Position numbers and translations under genes: made by a program. Below, piece after piece: positions 6,201 through 58,063 of a stretch of DNA of 64,000 bases (position 1 is its first letter; every line of letters starts with the position of its first letter). The DNA is from a virus (taxonomy: Duplodnaviria; Caudoviricetes). The notes beneath the pieces are model-generated. The model worked only from the letters and a program-made list of their open reading frames with translations, was not told the origin of the DNA and made no database searches. The stretch spans positions 1 to 64,000 of the IMG/VR virus record IMGVR_UViG_2791355405_000002; one strand, 5' to 3'.

Positions 6201-6342
6201 CAGCCGGCTCGCCGCCGGGTATCGCGAGGCGTTCAGCGTCCTCGGCCGTCGGCATGAGGGCGATCATGCAGCCCTGCGTGTGCGAGCCGTCGGCGGCGGC
6301 CGTCAGGACCGGCGGGTGCTGGTGGTCAGTGCGCGGGGGCAT
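3226..6342 (-). CDS. 2H phosphoesterase (2'-5' RNA ligase-like) + MuF-like + capsid maturation protease fusion
   Basis: HCTL and HIC 2H motifs at the N-terminus; LDGRTCEPC...CTG...NACRG MuF-like segment; TGDGREF...VSVD...ATLVDIPAF and VSGDWR protease motifs. Confidence 0.82.
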   Translation of the reverse strand: MPPRTDHQHPPVLTAAADGSHTQGCMIALMPTAEDAERLAIPGGEPADELHCTLRYLGKTDAHDSDARAALVEEMRMLSQDLPSITSKVFGAAHWNGDGDEPSWVWSVGDMPDGVSLEAAHEMAEEAVWATALDVPDPHTPWVAHICAAYSGDPSFLPELEQRLGPVTFDRIRVSFGDEDHDIPLTGEAVTAAAGPLRREPTELEVASRADFASVHREWETATNRAVQTLASTTAAWRLDLRQQITRDLADDDLDSLLELSLDRQAAAGTLLSLMEEFAVKAGRACQREAEAQGVRVPDWSLPDDEDDAVTAALAGRRLLASVAELTSDLMSGALLTAAKRKLSGLLRSNRPPAQIAAEVDRELATVDGTSVRAAVGQAMTAAQNAGRNAVMDAAPPASSYVASEILDGRTCEPCKGVDGRTFTTLDAAVAEYPVMGYRDCTGARYGNACRGFIVAVWQEVRRSATTASADPAKEDDAMPWHKVHGHSECPNDKPWAVVKDSDGEVSGCHANESDADDQLAALYAAEGDQTVTSATETNEALSKGEPNPGTPKDKRLKENQAAAEEKQCPPGMELDEDSGECVPIPEQAAGSTQALRGEHGPETLAHGAAADAEKVAGPPVSEMGAGETAPWRGPLTVEGIETGDGREFKPEALTWADLPLPLRWNKEDSHGGEPHTVAVNVGRIDKVWREDGGLVMGEGVLDLSTEDGRTVHGKIKGQFLRGVSVDVDSIKDADMELVWPADPDADGEGPDPFDMLFASPEKVVFNKGRIRAATLVDIPAFAEAYIALLDEEGAVVAGGEPIGAVRETRVPRARTLTVDAPLRPPAGWFSNPGLSVPTGITVTPEGRVYGHAALWGTCHIGQEGVCVTPPHEEAHPYFMTGNVWTEDGASVGVGQITVGTGHAPLSYGYRAAADHYDNTGAAVADVAVGNDAHGIWVAGSIRHGTPESRIHELRAAGQVSGDWRRIGGNLRLVGLLAVNVPGFPVPKLKTHLTSGQQLALVAAGIPQLSEGLSEDELDQWAYRRVLTALSRKVHGEE

Positions 6343-8173
6343 GGCCGTTCACCGCCCTCGGCACCAGCGACGTGGAGATCATGGCCGTGGTGTCCGCGTA
6401 GGGGCTGCGGCCGTCGAGCACCAGCCGACCGAAGGCGTCCAGGTGGCACAGGTACGTCCCGCTGCCTCCCGGCCGTACGGACGGAGCCGCCGTGGCGACC
6501 GCGTGCGTGAACGGGCATGAATACTCGTGTTCTCCGCACAGGGCCGGGTGGAGCAGGTCCCACCGGCCGGCCGCTCCGACCCGGAGCATGTGCTGGGTTC
6601 GGGCCTGCTGAACGAGGCGCTGCGCCCGTTCCGCCGTGGCGCGCTGCGGCTCGGGCGGTCCGGTCTGGTCCTGCGTCGCCGGCGGGGGTTCCTCGCCCGG
6701 GGCCGACCTCGCCGGCGCGGCTCCCTCGGCAGACTGTGACCCCTCGGGCGGCGGGGTGTCGCCTTGCTGCACGGCTTCGGCGGTGCCAGGGTCCTGCGGG
6801 GAGACCGGGACGATCTGCGGGACGTCCTCGCCGATGAGCTGCGCGAGGGCGGAGGCGGCGCCGGACGGCAGGGTCTTGATGATGACCTTCAGAGCCTGAA
6901 CCTTCAGCTCCTCATCGCTGGGCTTGTCGTCCTCGTCGAACCCCAGCTCCCGGCGGTACGCCGCGCCGGATATCTCCAGCCGGTCGTACGCCAGGGTCGC
7001 GTTGCCGCTGCGGTCCGGGCTCAGGGCCAGTTCGCTCATGTCGTACCAGACGACCCACGCCTCCGGGTCTTCGCCGGAGGCTTCCAACCGGGGCTGGAGG
7101 TAGCCGCGCGTGAGGGCGTCGCAGATCAGCTCGGCGATGGGGGCGATGTGCGTCTTGAGCCCGGATTCCTCCAACTGCCAGGCGCCCCAGTGGTTCACGT
7201 CGCCCATGCCCAGGAGGATCTCGGCCGGCATGTCCAGCTTGGTGGCGAGGCGCTTGATCGCGCTGTCCCGCCGTTCGATGACCTTGTCGTCGATCTTGAG
7301 GGTGAAGTCGACGTGCTTGACCTTCTCGATCGCCTCGGCCGGGCCGACCAGCGGGATGGGCACTACGGCGGAAGCCGTACCGGGGTTCTCGATGGCGGCG
7401 GCCGCAATGGCGATCCACTCCGCCATCAGGGGGTTGTCCTCCTCCTCGAACTCCTCGCGCACCGGGAACGACAGCTCGTCAGGCAGCAGCAGGAGGCCGG
7501 CGGAGGCGAGGCGGGACAGGTACTCGGCTGCGATCTTCCGGTTGACCAACTCCAGCTCCCGCATGACCTCCCGGGCGCTGCGGGCCGGGGAGTCGGCCAT
7601 GTGGAAGTAGCGGTCATGGGGCCGCCAGACACGGACGACGTGGTGCTCCGGGGCGAGGTCGCGCCAGTCCTGGCCGGTGACGGCGCTCTCCTCATCCATC
7701 ACCTGGTACTTGCCCGACTGCACGCGGATCTCGTCCACCGAGCGGACCTGCCAGCGCTCCCGTTTTCCGTCCTGCTCACCGACCAGGTAGCCCTCGCCCG
7801 GGAGGGAGAGCTGGACCGTGAGCCGCCTCATGATCTGCGACTGGCCGGCGACGCCCCCGCCGAACAGCATCATGAGGTCGGCAGCGGTGCCGCTGGTGAC
7901 AATCTCGGGCTCGTCGGTGTCCGGCTGGAGCCGGGCTGCGCGCAGACGCACCCGGGACAGCATGTTCGCCAGCCAGCCCACGCCGTAGTTGAACTCGCCG
8001 AGAGTGTCGTGGAAGCGCCAGACCTCGGCCTGCCACTTCTCGGTCTGGCGCAGGAACTTGGTCTCTGGGCCGGGCGGCTCAGCGGCGGCGGCCGTCAGCG
8101 CTTCGGGTGGTGTCTGCGGCAGCGGAGCAGGCCCCTGGGCCACGCGCCCCCGGAACACGTCGTACCACGGCAT
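6326..8173 (-). CDS. Portal protein
   Basis: LGEFNYGVGWLANMLSRVRL, VWRPH...DSPARS and NHWGAW motifs; ATG 8173 with GGAGGG RBS. Confidence 0.88.
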   Translation of the reverse strand: MPWYDVFRGRVAQGPAPLPQTPPEALTAAAAEPPGPETKFLRQTEKWQAEVWRFHDTLGEFNYGVGWLANMLSRVRLRAARLQPDTDEPEIVTSGTAADLMMLFGGGVAGQSQIMRRLTVQLSLPGEGYLVGEQDGKRERWQVRSVDEIRVQSGKYQVMDEESAVTGQDWRDLAPEHHVVRVWRPHDRYFHMADSPARSAREVMRELELVNRKIAAEYLSRLASAGLLLLPDELSFPVREEFEEEDNPLMAEWIAIAAAAIENPGTASAVVPIPLVGPAEAIEKVKHVDFTLKIDDKVIERRDSAIKRLATKLDMPAEILLGMGDVNHWGAWQLEESGLKTHIAPIAELICDALTRGYLQPRLEASGEDPEAWVVWYDMSELALSPDRSGNATLAYDRLEISGAAYRRELGFDEDDKPSDEELKVQALKVIIKTLPSGAASALAQLIGEDVPQIVPVSPQDPGTAEAVQQGDTPPPEGSQSAEGAAPARSAPGEEPPPATQDQTGPPEPQRATAERAQRLVQQARTQHMLRVGAAGRWDLLHPALCGEHEYSCPFTHAVATAAPSVRPGGSGTYLCHLDAFGRLVLDGRSPYADTTAMISTSLVPRAVNGHAPAH

Positions 8174-8201
8174 ACAGCCCTCCCCGGCTCGGATCGGGGG
8201 C

Positions 8202-8230
8202 ATGGTAGCCGCGATCATCCGAATGACCGT
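8202..8230 (-). promoter_or_regulatory. Putative late promoter ACGGTC-17-TACCAT for the portal gene
   Basis: Same spacing and TACCNT -10 as other members of the class. Confidence 0.45.
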
Positions 8231-8246
8231 TTTCACGGCATACCGG

Positions 8247-8978
8247 CTACGGGCGGCCAGGGTGGTACTGCTTGCCGGGGCCGCGCCGCCGGTTGTCGCG
8301 CTGCTCTTGCAACTCGCCGAAGCTGGCCAAGCCCTGACGCTTGCGCAAGTGGCGGATGTTGTTGGCGGGGATGCCGACCTTGGGAGGGCCGTAGATGGCC
8401 AGCAGGTCGGACTCCTCTTGCGAGGTGTAGCCGGCGGCCTTCATTGCCTCCTCGTCGGTGAAGACGTCGGCGTGCCGGTCGTGTTCGCGGTCGACGAGGT
8501 GATCCTGCTTGCCGCCGAGGGAGTAGCACCAATGGAAGTTCACCGGCGGGTCCGGTTCCACCAGCTCCTTGAACAGCGCGACTTCCTTGGTGTACGCGTA
8601 GAAGGTCGCGGCGGGCACCACGCGGATGATGCGCAGCCAGGCATCCAGGTACTCACGGCTGAGGAAGTCCCCGCTGTCGTGGATGCGGACGTGGCAGCCC
8701 CGGTAGCGCGGGTGGTTCAGCTCCGACTCCATCCTCCACTCCCAGCCGCGCAGGTCGTCCAGGATCATCGTGAGGTTGCGCTCGTGCGCGGCGAGGACGC
8801 CGGAGAAGCGGTAGGTCCCTGACCTGGCGTAACACAACTTGGCGCAGGAGCTGGCCGAGGGGCACGTGTTGTACGTCCGGCCGTCGGGCAGCCGGCCCGC
8901 CCACGCGGGCAGAGACCAGTTGTAGATGTCCTCGCGGCGCAGCTCGCTGTTCTGGCGGAGCAGCCATTCCCGGGGCAT
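8247..8978 (-). CDS. GP88-family phage protein (Cys cluster)
   Basis: CPSASSCAKLCYA, VRIHDSGDF and FYAYTKE motifs. Confidence 0.75.
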   Translation of the reverse strand: MPREWLLRQNSELRREDIYNWSLPAWAGRLPDGRTYNTCPSASSCAKLCYARSGTYRFSGVLAAHERNLTMILDDLRGWEWRMESELNHPRYRGCHVRIHDSGDFLSREYLDAWLRIIRVVPAATFYAYTKEVALFKELVEPDPPVNFHWCYSLGGKQDHLVDREHDRHADVFTDEEAMKAAGYTSQEESDLLAIYGPPKVGIPANNIRHLRKRQGLASFGELQEQRDNRRRGPGKQYHPGRP

Positions 8979-9124: not shown

Positions 9125-9157
9125 CACGAAGGCCCCGGAGCATCACGCTCCGGGGCC
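9125..9157 (-). terminator. Hairpin terminator; direct-repeat copy 1 flanking the RiPP cassette
   Basis: GGCCCCGGAG-CATCACG-CTCCGGGGCC stem downstream of the ATP-grasp gene. Confidence 0.7.
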
Positions 9158-9178: not shown

Positions 9179-10183
9179 TCAGCCGTCGGCCGCGCGGCGC
9201 CACGCCGTCCCGGAAGAAGCGCGGTGGCCGCCGCCGGGGGTGTAGACGTGAGTCGCCAGAGCGGTCTGGACGAGGTGGTCGGAGATGGCCCGTGAGATGA
9301 CCATGCCGGTGGCGGTCTCCACGAAACCGAACTGGCCTGCCGGGTTGGCTTCCAGGAACCACCACGTGCCGTTGTGGTCGACGGCGAAGTCCAGCGCCGC
9401 GTACTCCAGGCCCAGCTCACGCATGAGTTTCTGGACCTTCTGGTTCAGGGGCAGGCTGATGCCCACAGCCTCGAAAGTCAGGTCTTTCTCTGGTGCAGCC
9501 CGCCAGTCCAGTGCGTCGTTGGACGTGACCTTGCACGGGAACGCCCTGTCCCCGACCACGGTCAGACGGACGTCGTACGCCTTGTCCACCAGCTTCTGGA
9601 AGTAACAGACGGTCTGACGCACGCTGTCCTCCGCCGCCCCGATCTCCTCGGCAGTCACCAGCCGCGCCTGGACGAACCGGTCGGGGTGCGCGAGGAGCGT
9701 CTTGCACACCACCTGGCCGTCCTGCTCCCTGGCGAACGCGGCAGCCTGGACGGGGTCGTTGGTGTACAGCGCCGACGGGGTCCGGAAGCCCAGCGACGCC
9801 GCTAACTTCAGTTGCCGGGGTCCCGGCCGGGCCGCTTGGGCCCGGCGCGGGTGGTTGACCCACAGCACGTCATCGAGACCGTAAAGGAAGTCCTCCAGGA
9901 TGGTCCTGGACTCCCCCTCCGCCCAACTACCGGGGAGGTTCGGGTGCCACCAGAAGACGGACACGACCGACTGCGAGAGCGTGGTGCGGTGCTCATCCTC
10001 GATCCTGAACCTCAAGGGTTCGTCGTCCGAGAAGCCGGTCATCCTCAACAGGCCCGGTCGCGCGAGGTCGGCCGGGTCGATGCGGTGGATGTCGACCCCG
10101 CGTTCCTGGATCTGCCGTATCACGAGGTCGGCACTCAAGTCGTCGGGTGCAGTGACGACGAGCACTGTGGGTGGATGAGGCAT
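9179..10183 (-). CDS. tgmB: ATP-grasp RiPP maturase (graspetide synthetase, MvdC/MvdD/TgmB-like)
   Basis: TVLVVTAPDDLSADLVI, WVNHP, FQKLVDKAYDVRLTVVG, LDWR and WFLEANPAGQFGF motifs; start 3 nt after the precursor stop; in-frame TTA at 9803-9805. Confidence 0.9.
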   Translation of the reverse strand: MPHPPTVLVVTAPDDLSADLVIRQIQERGVDIHRIDPADLARPGLLRMTGFSDDEPLRFRIEDEHRTTLSQSVVSVFWWHPNLPGSWAEGESRTILEDFLYGLDDVLWVNHPRRAQAARPGPRQLKLAASLGFRTPSALYTNDPVQAAAFAREQDGQVVCKTLLAHPDRFVQARLVTAEEIGAAEDSVRQTVCYFQKLVDKAYDVRLTVVGDRAFPCKVTSNDALDWRAAPEKDLTFEAVGISLPLNQKVQKLMRELGLEYAALDFAVDHNGTWWFLEANPAGQFGFVETATGMVISRAISDHLVQTALATHVYTPGGGHRASSGTAWRRAADG

Positions 10184-10185
10184 GG

Positions 10186-10458
10186 TCAGTCGTCGTCCTT
10201 CTTGAGTCCCGTGGAGTTGTGGGTCATCGTCGGCCCGAACAGCGCGTGCGGGGCATGGGCGAAGTCGTCGTCCTTCTTGAATCCCTTGCTGTTGTGGGTC
10301 ATCGTCGTGGCCTGGACGTCGGCGACGTCCACCACGGCCTCTCCGCTGGTGATCACGTTGAGCTGGCGGAGCCGGTCGTAGGAGAACGGCGGCGTACGGT
10401 CGGCGGGAGGCGTCGGCACCTCGGTGAGAAGCGCGAACGGGGTAGATGCGGCGGTCAT
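10186..10458 (-). CDS. tgmA: ATP-grasp-modified RiPP precursor with two core repeats
   Basis: Leader PFAL...YDRLRQLNV..G; cores TTMTHNSKGFKKDDD and PTMTHNSTGLKKDDD; adjacent to the ATP-grasp gene. Confidence 0.88.
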   Translation of the reverse strand: MTAASTPFALLTEVPTPPADRTPPFSYDRLRQLNVITSGEAVVDVADVQATTMTHNSKGFKKDDDFAHAPHALFGPTMTHNSTGLKKDDD

Positions 10459-10768
10459 GGAGGGATCCTTCGGGCGTCGGGTGTGAGCCTAGCGCCGGAC
10501 AGGCGCCAGGTTGGGCGGACGAGCGGGGTAACTCCGAAGGTGCCTGGGCCTGCGGCTCCAAGGTCACCCGATCGCGTAGTTCAGCCCGACTGCACCGTGG
10601 CCGTCGATCGTCAGCATGTGGTTCCTCGGTCTCTGGTCACTGGTCTATGGTCGGCCTACGCCGGGTTCCATTCTGGCAACATCTCGGAGGCTGCGGCAGG
10701 TCGCTGACCAGCCATTTCGAGGAGACCGCGAGGGGCGCCCCATCCGACTCTGTAGCCCTGCCCGACAT

Positions 10769-10801
10769 CACGAAGGCCCCGGAGCATCGAACTCCGGGGC
10801 C
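10769..10801 (-). terminator. Hairpin terminator after gntR; direct-repeat copy 2
   Basis: 30/33 nt identical to 9125-9157. Confidence 0.7.
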
Positions 10802-10821: not shown

Positions 10822-11499
10822 TCAGGTAAGGACGAGAGGGTGGCCGGGCGCGTACGCGCTCTCGCCGACACCGATCACCGTATTGCCTGTCACGTAGACG
10901 CTCCGCATCACCAGCACGTCGCGGTCGGCGTCCAGGCCGAACGCCTCCCGCTCCTCCAGTGTCGTGGTGCGGACGTCCACGGTCTTGGAGGCCACCTTGA
11001 CCGGGTTGCCGGAACGGTCCTGGTAGAGGGCCTGCCATGTGGGATCGCAGGCCTGGGGCTCGTCGATCTCCGGCACGACGTCGGCAACAGCGATGCGCAC
11101 CCACGACTGCGATGCCTGGACGACCTCGTCCCCGCGATTCACGGTGCGAACGCGGTTCACGCACTCGTCCTCCCCGAGATGATCCGCGACCCAATCCGGG
11201 GCCTGTACGCGCTCGCTGCGCAGGTGGTGGATCGTCTCGCCAGCCTGCGTGATGCCCGCGATGCGCTTCTCGCCCGCGATGAGCCGGCGCCGGTCGGCGA
11301 CGAAGACGCCCCGCCCCTGCTGGGACGTCACGTAGCCCTCGGCTTTCAGCAACGCGATGCCGCGATAGACGGCGTTGTCGCTGATCATGAACTGCTTCTC
11401 CAGAGCCGAGGTGGGCGGCAGCCGGTCGCCCGGCTTCAGAGTTCCCAGGTCAATACGTGCTTTCAGGTAGTCGACCATGCGCTTCACAGTGCCAGCCAT
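10822..11499 (-). CDS. GntR (HutC-type, UTRA domain) regulator, KorA/TraR-like
   Basis: LKPGDRLPPT...LLKAEGYVTSQQGRGVFV wHTH followed by a UTRA-like C-terminus. Confidence 0.88.
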   Translation of the reverse strand: MAGTVKRMVDYLKARIDLGTLKPGDRLPPTSALEKQFMISDNAVYRGIALLKAEGYVTSQQGRGVFVADRRRLIAGEKRIAGITQAGETIHHLRSERVQAPDWVADHLGEDECVNRVRTVNRGDEVVQASQSWVRIAVADVVPEIDEPQACDPTWQALYQDRSGNPVKVASKTVDVRTTTLEEREAFGLDADRDVLVMRSVYVTGNTVIGVGESAYAPGHPLVLT

Positions 11500-12895: not shown

Positions 12896-13543
12896 TCAGA
12901 CGGCGACGGCTCGGCGCTTCGGAGCCTTGCGGACGCTCTGAACGACGTAGTCCTTCGGGTCTTCGGAGTCGAGTGGCCAGGTCTGGCCTGTGCGCGCCAT
13001 CTCCGCGCGGGCCTTGGCGTTCTTGGCTTGGGCGGCAGCGATCTTCTCGGCGACCGCGATGCGCGCGGCCTCGTCCTTGTCCGCTGCTTCCACCTTGCGC
13101 GTACCGGCTCCGATCATGCCGCCGTTGGGGTGGTGGTGCTCTATGGTGACGCGGTAAGCCTCGCGGACCTCGCGTGCCGTGTCGCGGACGGTGGTCATGG
13201 TCTCCACGGCCTGGTCCATCGGGACGTCCGTGTCGCCGCGCTCCTCGCGCACCACGGCGTAGACGGCCGCGTACATCTCGCAGATCATGAGCCGTCCAGC
13301 GGCCATCACGCGGCCCATGAAGCCGGTCGCGGCTTCGTGCTTCTCACGCGCCTCGGCGATCTTGCCCGCGTAGTAGAACGCCTGGTCCGACGAGTAGTTG
13401 CTGCGGACGGTCGTCTCGACCAGGCCGAGTCCGTCGCGGATCGTCTTGTTGGCGGTGGCCTGGCTGATGAGTCCGTTACGGACGTAGGGCGCCATCGCGT
13501 CGCGGGCCGCTCGCTCCGTCTTAGACATCTCACGTCGGGTCAT
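12896..13543 (-). CDS. Hypothetical protein
   Basis: Preceded by the start-associated motif and a palindromic promoter. Confidence 0.75.
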   Translation of the reverse strand: MTRREMSKTERAARDAMAPYVRNGLISQATANKTIRDGLGLVETTVRSNYSSDQAFYYAGKIAEAREKHEAATGFMGRVMAAGRLMICEMYAAVYAVVREERGDTDVPMDQAVETMTTVRDTAREVREAYRVTIEHHHPNGGMIGAGTRKVEAADKDEAARIAVAEKIAAAQAKNAKARAEMARTGQTWPLDSEDPKDYVVQSVRKAPKRRAVAV

Positions 13544-13584
13544 CTGCGATCCCTCATTCCTTGGTCGCCGGGACTCCCGTCCCG

Positions 13585-13621
13585 ATGACTTAATTAAATC
13601 ATAGGCTCGGCGAGCGGACAA
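13585..13621 (-). promoter_or_regulatory. Early promoter/operator TTGTCC-17-TTTAAT with ATGATTTAATTAAGTCAT palindrome
   Basis: Member of the repeated AT-rich palindrome family. Confidence 0.75.
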
Positions 13622-13670
13622 CCCGCAGAGTGCCACGGAACCCGGTTCCCGCAGAATCGCTCCTGGGGAG

Positions 13671-13726: not shown

Positions 13727-14806
13727 GTGACGATCATGACGGCGGTCGGCTCCACCACCCTCGCCACCGACGACCCGACACTGCGCGCGGTGACCCGTCT
13801 GCGCGAGCGGCTGGGCACGGTCGCGCCTCGCGACCCGAAGACACGCCGGCTCGGGCCGCGCGTCCACCGGTTGGACCTGCTGCACGAGCTGTGCGAGGCG
13901 CAGACGTTCGAGCACGTCGTGGGGTGGCTGTCCTCCGAGCGGCTGAGTGACGGCACCCGGCGGGAGTACGCCGACGACGTCCGCCACTGGGCCCGCGCCG
14001 GCCGGGAGCTGGTGGGCACGGAACCGTGGTACCTCGGGGCGATCACCTCCGACGTCATCCCGGCGTGGCGCGCGTGGACCGATGACCTCGGGCTCGGGCC
14101 CCGGCGGGTCAACCGCCTGGCGTCGTCGCTGACTTCGCTGATCGAGTACACCAAGTTCCGCACCCGGGCGGAGATCCTCAACCCGATCACCAAGCACGAC
14201 CGGCCTGTGATCGACCCGCACGACGAGTCGGCCATGACGCCGATCCTGGAGGTGCCGGAATTCCAGGCCGTCGTCGCGCAGGCGCAGACACCCCGGCAGG
14301 CCCTCGTCCCGGTGCTCATCTACACCCTGGCCGGCCGGGTATCGGAGTGCTGCGCGGCAGGCAAGCACCACATGGACTCCACCGGCGGGGAGTGCAAGCT
14401 GGACCTGACCCGCAAGGGCGGCAAGGGCCGGAAGTTCACGCTGCCGCCGCTGCTGTGCGAGCTGGGCGCCCGCTGCTGGGGTGATCGGGAGTCCGGGCCG
14501 CTGCTCCTGGACGACGACGACCGGCCGATGGACCGGCACGCGGTGGACCGGCTGCTGAACCGCCTCGGCCGCGCGGCCGGCGTCCTTCCCGGCCGGGACC
14601 TCACCCCGCACGTGCTGCGCGCGAGCAAGCTGACGCACATGTACGACCAGGGCGTGAAGCCCGACGACATCAGGCGGTTCGCCGATCACAGCCACATCGC
14701 TACGACCATGCGGTACATCCGACGACGGGACGACGAGGCCCTCAAGCGCGAGCACGCGGCGGCGGCCGTCCACGTCTACGAAGGCCTGGTGGACCGGTTC
14801 CTGTGA
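13727..14806 (+). CDS. Tyrosine recombinase (XerC/D-like)
   Basis: GRVSE, RKGGK, TPHVLR, DHSHIATTMRY catalytic motifs. Confidence 0.9.
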   Translation: MTIMTAVGSTTLATDDPTLRAVTRLRERLGTVAPRDPKTRRLGPRVHRLDLLHELCEAQTFEHVVGWLSSERLSDGTRREYADDVRHWARAGRELVGTEPWYLGAITSDVIPAWRAWTDDLGLGPRRVNRLASSLTSLIEYTKFRTRAEILNPITKHDRPVIDPHDESAMTPILEVPEFQAVVAQAQTPRQALVPVLIYTLAGRVSECCAAGKHHMDSTGGECKLDLTRKGGKGRKFTLPPLLCELGARCWGDRESGPLLLDDDDRPMDRHAVDRLLNRLGRAAGVLPGRDLTPHVLRASKLTHMYDQGVKPDDIRRFADHSHIATTMRYIRRRDDEALKREHAAAAVHVYEGLVDRFL

Positions 14807-14857: not shown

Positions 14858-16123
14858 TCATACCGACGCGGTCACTCCGGCCGCCATCTCCCGCAGCCGG
14901 TCGACCACCGCGCGGCAGTCCGACGAGGCCCGGTGGTCCCCGCCGTACAGCGGCTGCCAGCGGTAGTCACCGTGATAGTCGGACCACTCCCCCACCCAGT
15001 CGGAGTACGGCACCATCGCGTCCTCGAACCGCATCGACTCCAGCCACGCGGCGACGGACGCGGCCGGGTCGTCGTGGCCCACTGCGCGGTAGTGCAGCGT
15101 CAGCTCGTGCCGCAGCCGTCCAACGTCGAACGCCCGGTTGTAGATCAGGCACCGACGGTTGACCAGCGCGCCGGTGAGCTGCACGAGGACGTCGCCGAAC
15201 CGGGGCTGCCCCCGCACGTCCGCGTCGGCGATGCCGTGGACGTCCGTCGCCTCGGCGGGAATCGGCTCGCCCGGGTCGAGCAGCGTGTCCACGAGGACGT
15301 CCCCGCCGACGGTCAGCACGGCCAGGTTGACGATGCGCGCCTCGTCGTGCAGGCCGGTGGTCTCCGTGTCCAGGACGACCGCGCCCGGGTCAGCGAGAAC
15401 GTCCCACGCCCACGCGGACAGCTCGGCGACCTCCCGGCGCCGGGCCTCCTCAGCGCGGCGCTCGTTCTCCACAGCCTCGTGGCGCTGGGCCTCGTACCAA
15501 CGGTCGTAAGCCTCGTCGCACGGTGGGCACCTCCGGGGACCGAGCCAGGTCCCGGCGGCCCGCGCCTCGTTGACCTCATCGTCCGTCGCGGTCTGCACCG
15601 TGCAGTCGCTGCCGGGGTGCCCCGGGCAGGTACGCCGCCACACGATCTCCCGCTCGTCGGCGAGCTGCTTGCAGATCGCATAGCGGATCCGGCAGTGGTC
15701 GCACGCGGGCCATCCGTGCACGTCCTTCGGCAGTGCGGCCCCGGCCTCGCGCCTGCACCGCTCACAGGTCCGTGCCTGTCGGTCCTGCGCTTCCTGCTGC
15801 GCTCGCGCGCGGCACTCGGAGCACCGGGTGTAGACGACGTACCCGCGCACCTCCCGGCACTCCGGGCACGTGCGCCGGGCCTCCATGGCCTGCCTCTGCT
15901 TCGCGGACAGCGGGCGCATCTTCACCGCCCCGGCCGGGTCGTACAACGGGAACTCGCCCCAGCCGTGCCCGCGCCGGTACACCCGCAGCAGGGCCACGGG
16001 TTCCTGTCCGTCGGCCGGCTTCATCCGGTCCTTCTTCAGCTCCGTCATGGTGCGCAGGTGCCGGTGCTGCTCGGGGACGTCCCGGCGCTCGTAGACCGGG
16101 AGCGACGTGGTGGTGTCGGTCAT
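14858..16123 (-). CDS. DnaQ-like DEDDh 3'-5' exonuclease with Cys-rich N-terminus
   Basis: VLDTETTG, YNRAFD, HRASSD motifs; several CxxC pairs. Confidence 0.85.
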   Translation of the reverse strand: MTDTTTSLPVYERRDVPEQHRHLRTMTELKKDRMKPADGQEPVALLRVYRRGHGWGEFPLYDPAGAVKMRPLSAKQRQAMEARRTCPECREVRGYVVYTRCSECRARAQQEAQDRQARTCERCRREAGAALPKDVHGWPACDHCRIRYAICKQLADEREIVWRRTCPGHPGSDCTVQTATDDEVNEARAAGTWLGPRRCPPCDEAYDRWYEAQRHEAVENERRAEEARRREVAELSAWAWDVLADPGAVVLDTETTGLHDEARIVNLAVLTVGGDVLVDTLLDPGEPIPAEATDVHGIADADVRGQPRFGDVLVQLTGALVNRRCLIYNRAFDVGRLRHELTLHYRAVGHDDPAASVAAWLESMRFEDAMVPYSDWVGEWSDYHGDYRWQPLYGGDHRASSDCRAVVDRLREMAAGVTASV

Positions 16124-17769: not shown

Positions 17770-19149
17770 TCATCCGATCGTGCGCGCCGCCGATGCCAGG
17801 CCCTTGGACGAGGTCGTGCCGGTCACCGTCGGCTTCACGATCCGCTGGTGCCAGGCCGGCCACACCATCGCGTCCAGCCGGTCAGGACTCCAGTCCAGCT
17901 CGTCGTACCAGGTGCACATCTGGTCCTCCAGCTCCGCGAACTCCCCGACCATGTGCCAACGGCCTTGCTCAGACAACGCGCTGACCGGCTCCGCGCGGAC
18001 CTTCTTCCCCCGCGTCGCGCGCACGACCTTGATGGGGATGTTGACGCCCATGGCGTCGGCGGCGGCGCGGATCGTGTTGACGGCCATGTCCCCACCGAAG
18101 TTCACCTCACAGCAGATGTCGTCCGCCTCGTAGTCGACGGCCGCCTGCACGGCCCGGCGGCCCCAGCCGTCCGGGGAGAGGTGGCACGTGCGGTCGGCGA
18201 GGACGTAGCCGTGGGCGAGCATCGCCGGACGCTCCCGGCCGTTCACCACGCGCAGGTGCTCCTGCATCGCCTTGCCCACCACCACGATTCCCTGCTCGCC
18301 CCGACCGCCCGAGGGGTCCACGCCGACGGACGTGCGCATGAGGGGCGGCAGGTCGCTCGGGCGCAGCCGGTGCTCGTCGATCATCGGCCGGGTCCACAAC
18401 GCGTTCTCGTCGGCGTCGATGATCTCGGCGTGGAGTTCCTGGCGGCCGATCTGCGTGCCCGCGTAGGCGTCCTCCAGCGCGTTGCGGATGTCCTCCGGTA
18501 GGTGCGGGTTGTCGTACATGGACGCCCGGGTGCGCACCACGTTGGCTATCTCGCCGGCCGCGAGTTTCTTGATCAGGGTCCGGGGCTTCGGGGTGGTGGA
18601 GGCTATCCAGTGCGGACGCGGCCCGGTGCGAAGACCGAACCGCATCTGGTCCCAGGTCTGGTCGAGGTAACGCCAGGCGGCCAATTCCTCCAGCCACGAG
18701 AGGCAGCGGTTACCGCCGGAGCGCAAACGCTCGACGTCCTCGGGGCTGTGCGCGCCGAAGATCTTCGCCTCGGAGCCGTTCGGCCACCGGATGACCGTGC
18801 CGCCCTGGACGGTGCGCATCACGGCCTCGGGGCTGTGCACCCGAAGGCCCGACGGTCCGGCGTAGCAGGACGTCGCCGCGTCGCCGAGGGTCGGCGCGAT
18901 GATGCCTATCCAGTGCGGGATCGGGCCGGGCAGGCACGGCGGGCCCATGACGTGCTCGTGGACGTACCGCGCGCAGGCGTCCGTCTTCCCCGCACCACGG
19001 CCGGCGAGGAGCAGCCAGCCGTACCAGTCGCCATCTGGCGGGACCTGGTGGGGCAGCGGAGTCCAGCGCGGCTCGGTCACCAACCGCGCGTGCATCAGCA
19101 GCTTCTCGGCCGCCGCGCGGCTCAGCATCCGATCCACCATGAGGGTCAT
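17770..19149 (-). CDS. terL: Terminase large subunit
   Basis: LLLAGRGAGKT Walker A, WLEELAAW Walker B, VGVDPSG and SPDRLDA nuclease motifs; start 19149 or 19140. Confidence 0.92.
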   Translation of the reverse strand: MTLMVDRMLSRAAAEKLLMHARLVTEPRWTPLPHQVPPDGDWYGWLLLAGRGAGKTDACARYVHEHVMGPPCLPGPIPHWIGIIAPTLGDAATSCYAGPSGLRVHSPEAVMRTVQGGTVIRWPNGSEAKIFGAHSPEDVERLRSGGNRCLSWLEELAAWRYLDQTWDQMRFGLRTGPRPHWIASTTPKPRTLIKKLAAGEIANVVRTRASMYDNPHLPEDIRNALEDAYAGTQIGRQELHAEIIDADENALWTRPMIDEHRLRPSDLPPLMRTSVGVDPSGGRGEQGIVVVGKAMQEHLRVVNGRERPAMLAHGYVLADRTCHLSPDGWGRRAVQAAVDYEADDICCEVNFGGDMAVNTIRAAADAMGVNIPIKVVRATRGKKVRAEPVSALSEQGRWHMVGEFAELEDQMCTWYDELDWSPDRLDAMVWPAWHQRIVKPTVTGTTSSKGLASAARTIG

Positions 19150-21384: not shown

Positions 21385-22467
21385 TCACAGCTCCAGCCAA
21401 AGCGGGTTGTCCAGCGACCAGCGCACGGTGGTCTCGATGGACTTCTCCAGCGGCACAGGCGGCTCCCACCCGAGGCGGGCCATGCGGGAGCCGTCCAGGG
21501 CGTAGCGCAGGTCGTGGCCGGGGCGTGAGGCGTGGAAGGCGATGGGCTCGATGAGGTCGTCCACCACGGCGGAGTCCAGACCCATAGCCTCCCCCACCAG
21601 GTGCACCAGCTCTACGTTGTTCACCTCGCGCTCGCCGACGATGTTGTACCGCTCCGGCCGGGTGAAGGCGCCGTCTCGGTACTGCGCCGGGCCCATGGCG
21701 ATGCGTATGGTCTCGCCGCCGAGGGTGGTCACCTCGGGCTCGTCCTCGGTGTACCGCCGCGTCAGGAACAGCCAGGCGTCAGCCAGATTCCGTGCGTGCA
21801 GGTAGAAGCGGGAGCCGGGGGTGCCGTCGGGCGCGGTGTGTACCAGGAGCGGACGACCTGCGCGCAGACACTTGATGATCTTCGGCAGGAACTTCTCGCC
21901 GTCCTGCATCTCGCCGATGATGTTCATGGTGTTGGTCAGGACGACCGGCACGCCGTAGGTCCGCCAGTAGCTGATCGCTATGACCTCCTGCGCGGCCTTG
22001 CTCGCCGAGTACGGGTTGGACGGCACGGCCGGCTCCCACTCCGCGTGCCGGTGGTCCCCGTAGGCCGGGCCGTAGACCTCGTCCGTGGACATCTGGAGGA
22101 ACAACCGGGGCTTGATGGCCCGCGCGACCTCCAGGATGTTGAGCATCAGCGAGGTGTTGTTCTGCACGAACGTCACCGGGTGAGCGATGGAGCGGTCCAC
22201 GTGGCTCTCGCTCGCGACATTCATGATGACGTCGCAGTCCTCGAACTGGTGCAGCGTCAGCGGGTCGGCCGGGGCTCGCATGTCCCAGTGCACGACGTCC
22301 ACCCGATCCGTCCACCGCAGATCGCATACCGCCGAGGCGATCCGGGCTGGCAGGCCCTTGTGGTGGAAGCTGACCGGACAGGTGATGTCCCAGTCGGTGT
22401 TCGTCAGCAGGTGGCGCAAGAGGTGGCTGCCGACGAAGCCCGACGCACCGGTGAGCAGAACGCGCAT
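21385..22467 (-). CDS. NAD-dependent NDP-sugar 4,6-dehydratase (dTDP-glucose 4,6-dehydratase-like)
   Basis: LTGASGFVG, ASESHVDRSI, STDEVYG, NPYSASK, RPGHDLRYALD. Confidence 0.9.
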   Translation of the reverse strand: MRVLLTGASGFVGSHLLRHLLTNTDWDITCPVSFHHKGLPARIASAVCDLRWTDRVDVVHWDMRAPADPLTLHQFEDCDVIMNVASESHVDRSIAHPVTFVQNNTSLMLNILEVARAIKPRLFLQMSTDEVYGPAYGDHRHAEWEPAVPSNPYSASKAAQEVIAISYWRTYGVPVVLTNTMNIIGEMQDGEKFLPKIIKCLRAGRPLLVHTAPDGTPGSRFYLHARNLADAWLFLTRRYTEDEPEVTTLGGETIRIAMGPAQYRDGAFTRPERYNIVGEREVNNVELVHLVGEAMGLDSAVVDDLIEPIAFHASRPGHDLRYALDGSRMARLGWEPPVPLEKSIETTVRWSLDNPLWLEL

Positions 22468-22640
22468 GGCCCCTCGTCTCCTTGGTCCCTGATCGTGGCC
22501 GGATGGTAGCCAGGGACCGGAGAATCGCCGAACAGCCCAGGAAACGCAGGAACCGCCCGGTGCGGCGCCGGGCGGTTCCAGAGCTGAGGCGGTGCTCATG
22601 AGCCCGCCGTCCCGAGTGTCGTACCCAGACGGCCCGCCGC

Positions 22641-22960: not shown

Positions 22961-23593
22961 TCACTCCGGCTCCTCTGCCTCTCCGACGACCTCGCCCTCC
23001 AGGACGCGCAGGTGCGCGCCGGCGGCCTCCAGCATCCGCTGCCGCTGCGCGGGCTCCAGCTCAACCGCGTTGGCGCCGGCCAGGATCGCCTCCACGACCA
23101 CGGTCGTCTCTTCGTCGACCCGGCGGTCCAGGGCGATGGTCAGCTTCTCCGAGGCGTCCGTGCCGTCGATCTTCGCCTGGCGTTCCTCGATGCGCATCAG
23201 CCGGTCGATGGCCGCGAGGACGGGCCCGCTGTCCCGCAGCGGATTGCCCTCCTCATCGCGGACGATTTGGCCCGCGTGCAGCACGTAGTGCGGCCGGGCG
23301 AGCACCGCGTGGACCTGGCGGCGCAGCCCGTCCAGCCGCATCCGCGCGGCCTCACGGTATTCCTCCAGCCCCATGCCGAGTTCCTTGTTGGCCTGCTTCA
23401 GCGCGCGGGAGACGTCCACGCACGCGGCGGCGGCCGACGGGTTGCCCTCGGAGTCCAGGTAGTGCGGGGCCATCTGCTCAGCGACCTGCTGCCAGCTCAG
23501 GCCCCGGTTCTTCAGTTCGATGGCCTTCGCGCGCCGCTGCGCCACCATCGCCCGGTGGCTCGGCTGCTGGTTGGGTGGATCACCCTTCGCCAT
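22961..23593 (-). CDS. terS: Terminase small subunit-like HTH protein
   Basis: RRAKAIELKNRGLSWQQVA HTH; LAAIDRLMRIEERQAKIDG segment typical of actinophage TerS. Confidence 0.65.
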   Translation of the reverse strand: MAKGDPPNQQPSHRAMVAQRRAKAIELKNRGLSWQQVAEQMAPHYLDSEGNPSAAAACVDVSRALKQANKELGMGLEEYREAARMRLDGLRRQVHAVLARPHYVLHAGQIVRDEEGNPLRDSGPVLAAIDRLMRIEERQAKIDGTDASEKLTIALDRRVDEETTVVVEAILAGANAVELEPAQRQRMLEAAGAHLRVLEGEVVGEAEEPE

Positions 23594-23614
23594 AGTCCTT
23601 AGCCTCCCTAACGG

Positions 23615-24517
23615 TTAACGCGGTTCACGCAGGACGCCCTTGGTGCGCTCGCGGTACTCCCGGGCCCGGCTGATCTCCTCGGCCTCGCTGCCGCACTTAG
23701 TCATCGCGGTGCGCATGTAACTGACGACCGAGATCCGCTCGGCTCCGCAGGTCTCGCAGTACGCCGTGCGCTTCTCCCCGCAGGCACAGACGAGGGCCGT
23801 GTTGCCGTGCCACTGGTGAGCGTCCATCAGGATCAGGTCACCGTCCTGGAGATCGACCGCGACGCGGAACTCCGGGAAGACGAACCGGCCGCCGGTGTAC
23901 TCGCCCCGTCGCAGACAGAAGATCGTACTGAACCCCTTGTCCAGGTCACCCTTGTCCGTGTGGACGCCGGTCGGGTACGTGTTGTTGACAGTGATCGTCG
24001 TGAACGGGGTGTGTGGGACGACCCAGTCCGGATGCGTCTGCTCGATCTCCTCCATCTGCGCCGCGTACCGCTCGGGCACGTGCGTGCGCATGTTGTCCGC
24101 GACGGCTTGGAGCGCCGGGCGCAGCGCCTCCCACCTGGGGAGGTTCCGACCGGTCCACGCCGTCAACCGGCAGAACTTGAACGTGCCGTTCGGGTCGAAC
24201 GAGCCGAGGATGGATGAGCTGACGTACTTGAAGTACTGGCGTTTCTGTTCCCCCGGCCGGACGGCCTGTGAGCCCGAGGCCGGGCCCCGGTTGTGGGTTT
24301 TGTCGCCGCGCAGCGAATGCAGGATCTCGTACTGCTCCTCGGTCACGACGTCGCGCATCGCGCCGGGCAGGTAGACGCACAGCGGCTGCCCGTTGGGCAT
24401 GAACACCCGGGACGGGCCGGTCAGCAGCACGTTGTAGGCGTCGTCGCCGATGACCTTGCCGATCTTCTCGTCCAACTCCTGCTTGCTGATGCGCGAGCGC
24501 AGGCGAATGGAGATCAC
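23615..24517 (-). CDS. TET/JBP-family 2OG-Fe(II) dioxygenase
   Basis: FTTITVN, HTDKGD (HxD), HQWHGN and ERISVVSY motifs; GTGA overlap. Confidence 0.85.
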   Translation of the reverse strand: MISIRLRSRISKQELDEKIGKVIGDDAYNVLLTGPSRVFMPNGQPLCVYLPGAMRDVVTEEQYEILHSLRGDKTHNRGPASGSQAVRPGEQKRQYFKYVSSSILGSFDPNGTFKFCRLTAWTGRNLPRWEALRPALQAVADNMRTHVPERYAAQMEEIEQTHPDWVVPHTPFTTITVNNTYPTGVHTDKGDLDKGFSTIFCLRRGEYTGGRFVFPEFRVAVDLQDGDLILMDAHQWHGNTALVCACGEKRTAYCETCGAERISVVSYMRTAMTKCGSEAEEISRAREYRERTKGVLREPR

Positions 24518-25089
24518 CAGGTCACCTCCAGGGCAACGGGCGGGAAGACGTCGCGCACCTCGGCCACCATCTCCGCCAGGCTGTACTGCTCCACATCGAT
24601 GCACCGCAGCCTGACGCCCGGGGCGCCGGCGGCCCACTCCGATATGCGCTGAGCCCGGGTGGCCGCGCCCTTGCGCCAGGACGGGTTCTGCTTCGCGCCG
24701 CGCTCGCGCCACCGTGCGTCCAGTAGCGCCGGCGAGGCCATCAGCTCCACCACCGTCACCGCGACGCCCTGTCCGGCGAGGCCTCCGAGGAAGGGCCGCG
24801 TGGCCAGGCGAGCGCCCTCACCGAGGGCGAAGTGGACGTAGGCAGCCGACAGGAACTGAAGTGCCCGGGGCCCTATGTCCATGGCCAGGGCGTCGGTGCC
24901 GGGGAAGTCCTCGCGGGGCACTCCGAGTTCCAGGCCGACGGTGCGGCCGGTCGCCGGGTGGTTCAGCCGCGTGTGAGGGACGGCGTGGTGACGGCTCACC
25001 TCAAGGTCCCAGCCGGTGCGCAACTCCCGCGCCAGCGTGGACTTGCCCACCCCGGGCGGGCCGACGATGTAGAGCAGCTCGCTGATCAC
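24514..25089 (-). CDS. P-loop nucleotide/DNA kinase (5hmU DNA kinase-like)
   Basis: YIVGPPGVGKST, FPGTDALAM, EGARL and QNPSW motifs; inside the modification operon. Confidence 0.75.
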   Translation of the reverse strand: MISELLYIVGPPGVGKSTLARELRTGWDLEVSRHHAVPHTRLNHPATGRTVGLELGVPREDFPGTDALAMDIGPRALQFLSAAYVHFALGEGARLATRPFLGGLAGQGVAVTVVELMASPALLDARWRERGAKQNPSWRKGAATRAQRISEWAAGAPGVRLRCIDVEQYSLAEMVAEVRDVFPPVALEVTW

Positions 25090-25922
25090 AGACCCTCCCC
25101 GGCCAGACGCGCCGCGAGACGCTGAGCAGCGGCCGGCGCTGTGGAGTACCCGGAGCGCCCGAAGCCCGTCAGGGCCCACACCCTCGGCTCCACCTCGCAC
25201 GCGGCAGGGCCCGCCGGCGGGGTGTACCTCACGCCCTCCCGGTAGACCCAGGGCGCCTCGGGGTCGACCAGCCCCTCGTGGCACATGCGCGAGAGGATGC
25301 GTTCAGCTCGCTGCCGGGCACCGGAGGCGGTCGACGCCTTGGAGGCCCCGACCCGCGTGAACGTCCCGTCCCAAGCCGCCGTGTGGCTGAGCCGGTCGGT
25401 GACGCGCAGCAGAGCGAGCGGCCCTGGCCCGGCGAGGTGTCTGCCGGGCGCCTCCCATACGCCTCCGTAGGTGAGTGCCCGCGATGCGCCGGTCGCGGAC
25501 CGGGCCGTGGAGAGTACTAGGGCGTCCGTCTCGGTCCGGGTGCCGTCGGCGAGTGTGACAGCCACGACGTGGCCCGCCCCCTTCCACGCGGTGACGTGTT
25601 GGGCCACATCCGGGTCGACCAGAGGCCCGAGAGGGTCGACGAGGTAGTGGTCACCCTGCCGGACCGTACGCCCGCGCCGGAGATCCTTGACCTCGGCGGA
25701 GTCGTCGACCAGCCACCCGTGCCTGCCGTACCAGGCCAGAGCCGCCCGCACGTCGGTTCGCTGGTCGCCCGTCCACCAGGCGGTCCGGGTGAAGGCGAAC
25801 GCGCACCGGCTCGCCGCGCTCTGCGAGTACCCGTCGGCCACCGTCACATCGTGCCCGCGTTCACGCAGTGCACGGGCCACGCAGCTTCCGGCGATCCCCG
25901 CGCCGGCCACCATCACTCTCAC
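25086..25922 (-). CDS. FAD-dependent oxidoreductase
   Basis: VAGAGIAG Rossmann motif; C-terminal TGFGRSG. Confidence 0.82.
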   Translation of the reverse strand: MRVMVAGAGIAGSCVARALRERGHDVTVADGYSQSAASRCAFAFTRTAWWTGDQRTDVRAALAWYGRHGWLVDDSAEVKDLRRGRTVRQGDHYLVDPLGPLVDPDVAQHVTAWKGAGHVVAVTLADGTRTETDALVLSTARSATGASRALTYGGVWEAPGRHLAGPGPLALLRVTDRLSHTAAWDGTFTRVGASKASTASGARQRAERILSRMCHEGLVDPEAPWVYREGVRYTPPAGPAACEVEPRVWALTGFGRSGYSTAPAAAQRLAARLAGEGL

Positions 25923-26836
25923 TGCGGTGTCCTCTCAGGTATACGGCCGGTGTCCCGGTAGACCTTCCGGCGCCCGGCGTCCACCCCGTTCCACCCGTTC
26001 AGCTCTCCGAGGTAGGCCCTCGGCAGCTCCTGGAGACGGGCGGCATAGGCGGCTCCGGCCAGCTCGCTGGGGACCTGGTCGAGCTGATGCTGCATCTTGT
26101 CGATGTCGTGGCCCGGGTAGTAGCCACCCCGGCTCATCGAGTGGAAGTCGCACAGTGACGTCTCAGCGGTCTCGACGCTGACCGAGGGCACCGCCCCGGC
26201 CATGAGGCTCACCAGGCCGTCGGAGACTCGGTTGAGTTCCCGAACAGCCGCAGGGCCGTTGCCGGACGGCAGGCCGGAGTACAGCAGTCCCAGGCCCTTG
26301 CGAGGGCCGGACGAGTGGGCGTGCCCCATGTCCGGCGCCGCGACGTTCGCCCCGCATACCTGTTGCAGCATCTCGCAGGTCTTGAAGGCGGCCCAGCGGC
26401 CGTTGCCCGGGATGCTCAGGAGCCGGCCGGAGAGCATCGCCCAGTTGTCCCGGGGGCCGCCGCCGTCCAGACCCCGCATGAGCCAGCCGCTCAGGCCTCT
26501 GGGGTCTTCGCGGGCAACTTGCTGGACAGCGGAGAGGTGGCGGTGCAGCGCTCTGCGGGACCAGTGGCCGCGCCGCTCGGTGGCCACCGGCAGATCCATG
26601 ACAGCGTCGGAGGCTCGGGCCGGGTCGGGGACGGCCGCGAAAGCACGCAGTGCGGAGCCGAGGTGGTAGTAGGCGACGTGGCACACGACCAGCCACACCC
26701 GTTGTTCGTCCGTCAGGGACAGGCTGTCGGCCATCTGCCGCAGCACCGGGTACACCGGGTCCATGTCCCGGGTGCTCGTCTGCAACCGGTGGAAGGCGAG
26801 GTAGTCGTCCAGCAGCGCGCTGTTCGGTTCGCTCAC
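25919..26836 (-). CDS. Amino acid:DNA transferase (aGPT-Pplase2-like)
   Basis: DMDPVY, AYYH, ERRGH, GNGRWAAFK and ETSLCDF...YYPGHDI motifs. Confidence 0.78.
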   Translation of the reverse strand: MSEPNSALLDDYLAFHRLQTSTRDMDPVYPVLRQMADSLSLTDEQRVWLVVCHVAYYHLGSALRAFAAVPDPARASDAVMDLPVATERRGHWSRRALHRHLSAVQQVAREDPRGLSGWLMRGLDGGGPRDNWAMLSGRLLSIPGNGRWAAFKTCEMLQQVCGANVAAPDMGHAHSSGPRKGLGLLYSGLPSGNGPAAVRELNRVSDGLVSLMAGAVPSVSVETAETSLCDFHSMSRGGYYPGHDIDKMQHQLDQVPSELAGAAYAARLQELPRAYLGELNGWNGVDAGRRKVYRDTGRIPERTPQ

Positions 26837-49067: not shown

Positions 49068-49634
49068 ATGAGCCGTATCGGAGAGAACCACCCGGACAAC
49101 CCGTTCAGCGCGGCCGGCCGCGCCAACGGACAGACCAACGACCAGCTCCGCAACCGGGGACTGGACGGCCAGGGCAACCCCCTGCCGAACAAGAACTTCG
49201 CAGGTCAGAAGTCGTTCCGGTCGGGCGGTTCGAGGAACCAGGGCATCGCCCAGCTCGCCCAATCCATCGGCGACATGGACCTGGCCAACCAGGAAGACCT
49301 CCACGCCTTCTGTGACGCGATCAGGAAGATCCTGAACTATTTCGCGATCTCCGTGGAATTGGCAAAGGGCCAGCTCAAGGCAGCTTCCCGGCAGATGGCG
49401 AAGGAGTCTGTTGACGGGCGGCTGACGATGACGCAGCGCGCCGAACTGGCCAGGGCGCTGTCCATGATGAGCCGCGACCTGGACGCGGTCTCGCGCGCGT
49501 GCATCGCCGGAGCGGTCGGCGCGGTCAAGGCCTGGCGCAGGTTCGACTCGTTCCTGGGCGACCTGGACAAGGGCAACGACTCCAAGTTCACCCGCCCCGG
49601 GGGCCGTGGTCGCGGCCCCTTCACCGTGGTGTAG
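49068..49634 (+). CDS. TraA-like plasmid transfer accessory protein
   Basis: Helical protein directly upstream of traB, as in Streptomyces plasmids. Confidence 0.55.
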   Translation: MSRIGENHPDNPFSAAGRANGQTNDQLRNRGLDGQGNPLPNKNFAGQKSFRSGGSRNQGIAQLAQSIGDMDLANQEDLHAFCDAIRKILNYFAISVELAKGQLKAASRQMAKESVDGRLTMTQRAELARALSMMSRDLDAVSRACIAGAVGAVKAWRRFDSFLGDLDKGNDSKFTRPGGRGRGPFTVV

Positions 49635-49639
49635 GGGCG

Positions 49640-58008: not shown

Positions 58009-58063
58009 CCCGCCGGCCCGGGAGCCGTGCGGCTCCCGGGCCCGACCAAGGAACGAGGAACCC

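Follow-up and report, generated by a model that had tools for sequence, protein, structure and literature searches.

A gene pair in the 64,000-nt stretch of DNA analysed here (the window; positions 1 to 64,000 of IMG/VR record IMGVR_UViG_2791355405_000002, a tailed phage) raises the question of why a small open reading frame (ORF) and an ATP-grasp ligase gene should stand side by side between the terminase and portal genes of a phage. A preliminary description of the window had taken them for a phage-borne graspetide cassette, that is, a precursor peptide and the enzyme that cross-links its side chains. In our judgement, the pair is likely to be a working two-gene graspetide moron (an independently transcribed accessory unit) on a temperate Streptomyces phage of about 93 kb, which probably persists as a plasmid.

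The ligase matched TIGR04187, the profile of ATP-grasp ribosomal peptide maturases, over nearly the whole model (ligase residues 6-304 against profile positions 1-311 of 312; E 2.4e-76; 256.9 bits at a curated cut-off of 350). MvdC (2e-40) and MvdD (1.6e-29) were also matched, and Pfam yielded just a weak ATP-grasp match. The best match among solved structures was 9bou, titled as the ATP-grasp ligase PruB of Streptomyces coelicolor (E 6.8e-36; at 32%, also the highest identity among them), followed by MdnB, AMdnB, MdnC, CdnC and PsnB (5ig8 with E 8.5e-28). The homology to these characterised graspetide macrocyclases extends over the full length, the N-terminal part preceding the ATP-grasp region included. 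An AlphaFold model computed from 29 sequences of the ligase clade described below (predicted local distance difference test, pLDDT, 75.8; predicted template modelling score, pTM, 0.76) had six graspetide macrocyclases as its top fold matches (7m4s, 9bou, 7mgv, 5ig9, 5ig8 and 7drm), with RimK, LysX and synapsin ranking below them. Residues K161, R206, D265, E278 and N280, which align with the ATP- and Mg-binding residues of MdnB, were invariant in 29 of the 29 clade members. Both sequence and modelled fold thus support the ligase as a graspetide macrocyclase, for which cross-linking activity is predicted.

As for the ORF preceding it, the translation, a 45-nt repeat and 25 homologues all agreed with the coordinates and the description given at the outset, i.e. 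a 90-residue precursor with two near-identical cores. Each core is 15 residues long and 11 of the 15 residues are alike; at the DNA level, the two correspond to the 45-nt repeat (91% identity, 75-nt spacing). A search of 5.8 billion proteins returned 25 distinct relatives (clusters at 90% identity) of 82-91 residues, all of which had the two-core layout and contained the motif x[TS]xTHNxxGxKKDDD twice. T/S2, T4, H5, N6, the basic pair 11-12 and Asp-Asp-Asp 13-15 were kept in 24 of 25 first cores and in all second cores, and Gly 9 usually so. Either Lys of a core could be replaced by Arg or Gln, never both within one core. The leader region, and this region only, was matched by PF14404 (Strep_pep; E 1.9e-4, 21.9 bits) and TIGR04186 (E 0.0076, 16.3 bits), both with a curated cut-off of 25, so that the precursor, like the ligase in the case of TIGR04187, is related to these curated families and stands outside them. 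The leader also aligned (39% over 56 residues) with a precursor adjoining one of the chromosomal ligases of the host, which bears one tail only, T-rich and of the ...SKTHFDD type, different from the cores in the window. Judging by these alignments, the leader is homologous to the Strep_pep/GRASP_targ type. In accordance with what is expected of a graspetide precursor, a leader is combined here with cores that contain Thr/Ser/Lys donors and Asp/Glu acceptors, directly adjacent to the ligase. An ESM Atlas look-up of the disordered precursor gave nothing usable.

The intact ligase gene directly follows the precursor, as had been claimed, except that the gap between the precursor stop (TGA, 10188-10186) and the ligase ATG (10183-10181) measures 2 nt and not 3. 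The GAAGGA-like ribosome-binding site of the ligase coincides with the KKDDD codons of the precursor. Measured pairwise against seven or eight relatives, the ratio of nonsynonymous to synonymous substitution rates (dN/dS) ranged from 0.17 to 0.25 in the ligase and from 0.25 to 0.57 in the precursor. Purifying selection thus acts on the two genes; with dN/dS below 0.6 in each, both are evidently being kept, and together with the 25 two-core homologues this indicates that the precursor architecture is not that of a chance ORF. At the sequence level, precursor and ligase are shown to be intact, conserved and translationally coupled. It might be argued that the small ORF is not the substrate and that the ATP-grasp enzyme modifies another protein, ribosomal or phage-encoded, in the manner of RimK, or else that the pair is a decaying passenger. 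The PHROGs name of the nearest phage family is 'ribosomal protein S6 glutaminyl transferase', the precursor models score under their cut-offs, and of the copies residing in chromosomal islands (see below) one has a decayed core 1 and another lacks a visible precursor. Since the ligase is nearer to graspetide macrocyclases than to RimK in both fold and sequence, and since 25 variants show a conserved precursor that is coupled to its ligase and maintained by purifying selection, we regard this explanation as highly implausible.

The contig of which the window forms the first 64 kb is 92,743 bp long, belongs to a 9.1-Mb, 736-contig Streptomyces-like assembly and is, on the evidence of its gene content, phage throughout. 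Portal, MuF-protease fusion and major capsid genes are followed, at the far contig end and on the same strand, by head-tail adaptor, tape measure and endolysin genes, i.e. the virion operon leaves one contig end and resumes at the other. Terminase large subunit, holin, lysin, integrase, ParB, primase-polymerase and helicase genes are present as well. A host gene cluster on a chimeric contig was rejected as an explanation, because both ends continue one virion operon and the synteny repeats in viral contigs. With a full set of virion, lysis and replication genes and with the same synteny in related viral contigs, the cassette is phage-borne, as first supposed. Close ligase homologues sit on contigs of similar size (92.6-95.7 kb), and a relative of the phage (L065, NZ_CP041606.1, pS1D4-14.2; portal identity 72%) is a closed linear plasmid of 98,815 bp in a complete Streptomyces genome. 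From the phage gene set and this plasmid relative, the element can be read as a temperate phage-plasmid, that is, probably a temperate Streptomyces phage of about 93 kb persisting as a plasmid. In a stricter first look, the portal of this phage family was not found in 400 other Streptomyces species genomes. The phage collection contained no match at the DNA level and two distant ligase matches only (26-29%) at the protein level.

Next to the element itself, the distribution of the pair among related phages is informative. The survey comprised 30 viral contigs with a related portal, scored where enough upstream sequence was available. The cassette was present in five distinct viral contigs with portal identity of 84-87% (L037, L038, L040, L044/L050 and L056), in which it is syntenic, and absent from six with portal identity of 69-89% (L035, L036, L039, L043, L045 and L049), as well as from all more distant ones. 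Presence varies at one site among close phages, as is typical of morons, and we read the pair as such a unit. The neighbouring GntR gene upstream and GP88 gene downstream were each found both with and without the pair in relatives. For this reason they were rejected as pathway members, and the unit can be taken to consist of two genes only. No transporter, protease or methyltransferase adjoins the pair, in agreement with the earlier remark, its immediate neighbours being GntR/UTRA and the PF17338 protein GP88; no gene for a protein isoaspartyl methyltransferase (PIMT)-type O-methyltransferase lay beside the pair, either in the window or in the relatives examined. The original placement 'inside the DNA-packaging region' was roughly right: terminase and portal do flank the site, with a variable accessory stretch of 9.5 kb, including the cassette and an integrase, lying between them. 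In the plasmid relative L065, the slot before the portal is occupied by an XRE regulator, a PH-domain protein and a methyltransferase in place of GntR and the cassette.

The 29 close ligases, at 61-88% identity, were united in a single, fully supported clade. Sister proteins of the clade are 46-48% identical, ordinary chromosomal maturases reach at most 38%, and the three chromosomal ligases of the host itself are 33-35% identical to the ligase of the window. A close ligase match was found in only 1 of 400 other Streptomyces species genomes; on Streptomyces chromosomes, the clade is rare. Clade members located on large chromosomal contigs take basal positions in the tree, and those of the 92-96-kb phage contigs plus one plasmid form a derived subclade, with provisional rooting. 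Most copies with readable surroundings are on phage or plasmid contigs; such readings of context leave out most clade members, e.g. the chromosomal copy of Tu6071, the plasmid copy of GDS52 and the 46-48% sisters. The three copies outside the phage backbone with readable surroundings are all located in low-GC chromosomal islands. One of them is found beside a DUF5753-XRE regulator and a DUF3987 gene. In another (L014:9741-9989, on a 211-kb contig of Streptomyces sp. NPDC006872), core 1 of the precursor is decayed, its THN and DDD motifs being gone, and core 2 is intact. In the third (L015), the ligase is present and no precursor is visible upstream. The basal position of the island copies suggests that the phage captured the cassette from an island. 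A different graspetide pair was noticed on a 139.8-kb IMG/VR contig, putatively viral (L009:7699-8960), where an 88-aa ORF, whose likely start is an internal Met, has an LFAL-type leader and a single tail ending in PDHDTD and is followed by a ligase 36% identical to that of the window.

Streptomyces TTA codons are read by the bldA tRNA, which restricts translation of the respective genes to late growth and development. At least one TTA codon occurred in five of the six phage-borne ligases, at five different alignment columns and mostly replacing CTG, i.e. by two base changes. The other conserved genes of the same loci contained three TTA in 26,740 codons (Fisher p about 3e-5 for the enrichment, lineages counted once), and the three island ligases contained none, despite their lower GC content at third codon positions (GC3). 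No tRNA-Leu(UAA) was found on the contig, the only tRNA detected there by ARAGORN being tRNA-Glu(CTC) (C551:74921-74992; L010:10921-10992). The recurrence of TTA at shifting positions suggests that the ligase may need the bldA tRNA of the host for its translation, and the pattern is suggestive of selection on the phage copies to keep the ligase bldA-dependent. It is also the sole evidence that bears on the roles proposed earlier (action against a protease-based defence, on the head protease of a rival phage or on host development), and it favours a link to host development. A 246-aa protein encoded elsewhere in the variable stretch (window 12896-13636) has a TTA codon too, and TTA may be a wider feature of the accessory genes of this phage.

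The borders of the pair are marked by hairpins. The region 9125-9157, behind the ligase, and the hairpin copy upstream of the cassette constitute a 33-nt direct repeat (91%). Further copies of this GCCCCGGAG...CTCCGGGGC hairpin family were seen at 58015-58042 of the window and at C551:66029-66055, 67687-67713 and 72934-72962; the latter three are followed by (T)TCGTCGTG and located after plus-strand genes, as a recurrent terminator type of the phage. The hairpin that borders the cassette also stands in front of GP88 or the portal in relatives, whether or not these carry the cassette. The flanking hairpins were rejected as a mark of cassette insertion, given that this hairpin type recurs elsewhere in the phage and borders cassette-less slots. 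We read the hairpins as the usual terminators of the phage, which are also likely joints for module exchange by recombination. Upstream of the precursor, the distance between a GCGCTAGGCT box and the start codon is the same in the window, in L044 (phage), in the L014 island and, with the box as TACCCT, in the L013 island; the box goes along with the cassette into non-phage islands. Four other phage copies (L006, L007, L008 and L038) have a TTGCAT-17-TTTAAT box, then TTAATCCATGATCG, then three GGAAC repeats. This AT-rich box, not found in the window copy, is located about 100-180 nt upstream of the precursor start amid DNA of 70% GC; it resembles a strong promoter, the GGAAC repeats being candidate regulator-binding sites. 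All upstream boxes, including that of the window, are candidate promoters only. As regards a promoter and terminator of its own, the pair has hairpins on both sides and conserved upstream boxes, yet not a single consensus promoter match. An Rfam scan of the pair and its flanks gave no match.

The location of the pair invites another explanation, namely that these are late lytic genes of the virion operon, whose peptide would be produced during the burst and would shield new virions or the contents of the lysing cell from proteases of host or environmental origin, or tune the head protease of the phage. The two genes are on the same strand as GP88, portal, MuF-protease fusion and capsid and directly upstream of them, lysis would be the simplest release route for a peptide without an exporter, and the hairpins, having no long U tract, could leak. 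Nevertheless, these hairpins are stable and present on either side of the unit, the slot holds integrase and regulators and not virion genes, close relatives with portal identity of 86-89% manage without the pair, and TTA gating would be unexpected in a gene required in every burst. We consider a late lytic role unlikely; that the moron is insulated and accompanied by integrase and regulators, together with the TTA pattern, points to its expression in lysogens more than to a strictly late role.

In the mechanism that we propose, the ligase would bind the leader (PFALL ... YD..RQLNV) and use ATP to activate Asp side chains in the terminal DDD of each core. The activated Asp would be joined to the hydroxyls that are never lost, i.e. 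Thr/Ser at core position 2 and Thr at position 4, whose conservation is the reason to expect two ester bonds per core. Each core would thereby acquire two omega-ester rings in hairpin register (2 with 15, 4 with 13), an arrangement which would suit a hairpin that turns at the Gly. In addition, a lactam might form between Lys and Asp, and 4 to 6 dehydrations would be expected per precursor. The pair would be expressed from its own promoter, with translation of the ligase gated by bldA through TTA, and the peptide would be made mainly in lysogens entering late growth or differentiation.

The pair shares some features with several groups of characterised graspetides and differs from them in others. 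The prunipeptin pair PruA/PruB of Streptomyces, which we take to represent graspetide group 11 and to whose type the families PF14404, TIGR04186 and TIGR04187 (SAV_5884, Strep_pep type) belong, similarly consists of a precursor and one ATP-grasp ligase, unaccompanied by protease, exporter or methyltransferase, and the leader pattern PFAL ... YD..(L)QLNV occurs in both; the host genome has three chromosomal ligases of this type. However, the ligase of the window is just 31-38% identical to such enzymes, its 29-member clade branches apart with full support, and its core is doubled (x[TS]xTHNxxGxKKDDD) instead of the single ...SKTHFDD-type tail of the host copy. Microviridins (MdnA, MdnB, MdnC), plesiocin/PsnB and chryseoviridin/CdnC have in common with the pair the enzyme fold and leader-guided, ATP-dependent side-chain ligation, at a sequence identity of 20-26% between the ligases, and some characterised graspetide groups also have multi-core precursors. 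Microviridins (group 1) are nevertheless distinguished by two ligases and a TxKxPSD-type core, whereas the window has one ligase and another core. Graspimiditides (fuscimiditide and albusimiditide; group 13) are likewise actinobacterial, their leader and ligase are related to those of the window, and esters cross-link a Thr/Ser strand to an Asp strand so as to build a stem-loop; our putative ring register was inspired by this model. They are, in contrast to the pair, defined by the adjacent PIMT-type methyltransferase and the aspartimide.

What the peptide does is the weakest step of the proposed mechanism. It might be a protease inhibitor, which, there being no exporter, would act inside the cell or after lysis. 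Protease inhibition is our default guess, because all functionally characterised graspetides are protease inhibitors according to a 2026 preprint (10.64898/2026.08.04.741601). The same preprint would accommodate a counter-defence or exclusion factor, which blocks a protease-based host defence or a protease needed by rival phages. Phage conflict genes reside at sites such as this variable stretch that separates terminase and portal, and a DEDDh exonuclease matching defence-associated models is encoded in it. For the pair itself and its direct neighbours, in contrast, none of the PADLOC defence models matched, the sequence names no target, and the three readable copies off the phage backbone, in chromosomal islands, do not fit a phage-only role; a counter-defence function therefore seems quite improbable to us. 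Our more specific proposal, that in a family of Streptomyces phage-plasmids a doubled graspetide under bldA gating serves as lysogenic-conversion factor and inhibits a protease of the host or of a rival as differentiation sets in, is tentative and, as a whole, rather doubtful.

Several points weigh against the reading of the pair as a lysogenically expressed graspetide moron. The TIGR04187 score of the ligase and the PF14404 and TIGR04186 scores of the precursor leader are below the curated cut-offs, and a scan of the pair and its flanks for consensus sigma-70 promoters and terminators gave no match. As the pair shares its strand with the late virion genes and immediately precedes them, late expression by read-through is conceivable. 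The TTA test covers five related lineages and few codons, and one phage-borne ligase (L038) has no TTA. Finally, the supposed ring topology is drawn from conservation, and the presumed protease inhibition from other graspetide groups with different cores.

The features of the locus are listed in Table 1.

Table 1. Coordinates of the precursor-ligase pair, its candidate signals and the neighbouring genes in the window
Feature	Position	Strand	Remark
Graspetide precursor gene, 90 aa	10186-10458	minus	translation
Precursor leader, residues 1-50	10309-10458	minus	
Precursor core 1, residues 51-65	10264-10308	minus	TTMTHNSKGFKKDDD
Precursor linker, residues 66-75	10234-10263	minus	
Precursor core 2, residues 76-90	10189-10233	minus	PTMTHNSTGLKKDDD; C-terminal end
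Precursor stop TGA	10186-10188	minus	
ATP-grasp macrocyclase (graspetide synthetase, predicted), 334 aa	9179-10183	minus	no internal stop
TTA codon (Leu127) in ligase	9803-9805	minus	rare codon read by bldA
GC-rich hairpin directly after ligase stop	9131-9157	minus	12-bp stem, 5-nt loop, then TTCGTG; -38.4 kcal/mol, z -3.4
Second hairpin copy, directly after GntR stop	10775-10801	minus	upstream cassette border; -40.7 kcal/mol, z -4.9
Upstream region, 316 nt, candidate promoter	10459-10774	minus	
-10-like TAGGCT	10486-10491	minus	candidate
Ribosome-binding site GAAGGA of precursor	10466-10471	minus	
GntR/UTRA regulator	10822-11499	minus	neighbour, not part of unit
PF17338 GP88-family protein	8247-8978	minus	neighbour, not part of unit; E 7.7e-58
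Portal protein	6326-8236	minus	first conserved virion gene downstream of variable slot; phrog_776 E 4e-133
Terminase large subunit	17770-19149	minus	upstream limit of variable stretch; PF03237 56.8 bits, over cut-off; start approximate, picked by GC3 rise and start codons
Tyrosine recombinase (integrase)	13727-14806	plus	within variable stretch; phrog_1 E 6.1e-25

Some other genes of the window deserve mention. The exonuclease of the variable stretch is a 421-aa protein (14858-16123) with a C-terminal DEDDh/RNase T domain, matched by PADLOC PDC-S48 and by Cas-associated DEDDh models. In the region 22961-27663, a Tet/JBP-type oxygenase (23615-24712), an amino acid:DNA transferase (25919-26836) and ParB (26833-27663) are encoded, which, with an epimerase (21385-22599), make up a DNA base hypermodification module. 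A 712-aa protein (49499-51637) has a weak FtsK/SpoIIIE-like match (phrog_1358; also phrog_24831, of unknown function).

Cargo of ribosomally synthesised peptides with post-translational modifications (RiPPs) in variable hot spots of mobile elements has precedents. Prophages carry bacteriocin clusters (Dragos et al., preprint 10.1101/2020.10.01.322628); this phage survey names no ATP-grasp or graspetide cluster. Graspetide clusters have been described on integrative and conjugative elements of Porphyromonas (preprint 10.64898/2026.08.04.741601), which are of the grasp-with-SPASM type and include a type I exporter. The window, by comparison, has a bare pair on a probable phage-plasmid. No report of a graspetide on a phage was found in the searchable literature. 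The core motif, which the preliminary description had not recognised either, was not found in searchable graspetide papers or supplements; the supplements of a 2026 graspetide survey also gave no match, which is weak evidence, as their accessible text is possibly incomplete. The chemistry, then, would be of a known kind, its carriage by a phage is without a report that we could find, and the cassette is real and intact. New contributions are the portal-based survey of presence and absence, a tree in which the island copies are basal, the border formed by hairpins and the test on TTA codons.

Graspetides have been studied as protease-inhibiting natural products of bacterial chromosomes. The clade described here escapes ordinary annotation, as the public databases give no functional name and no precomputed Pfam domain for any of its 29 ligases, all being 'hypothetical protein' or unnamed. 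If the peptide turned out to be a plain protease inhibitor without a phage phenotype, it would still represent a new scaffold, carried as an ordinary cargo gene. Were the proposed conversion factor real, it would steer development or spore carriage, or disarm protease-dependent defence; no graspetide before it would have had a part in the biology of phages, and its core scaffold would be new. If the peptide is made and tied to bldA, the pair would provide a small portable two-gene system for doubly hairpinned peptides, and a temperate phage-plasmid would through it be connected with the programme by which Streptomyces develops.

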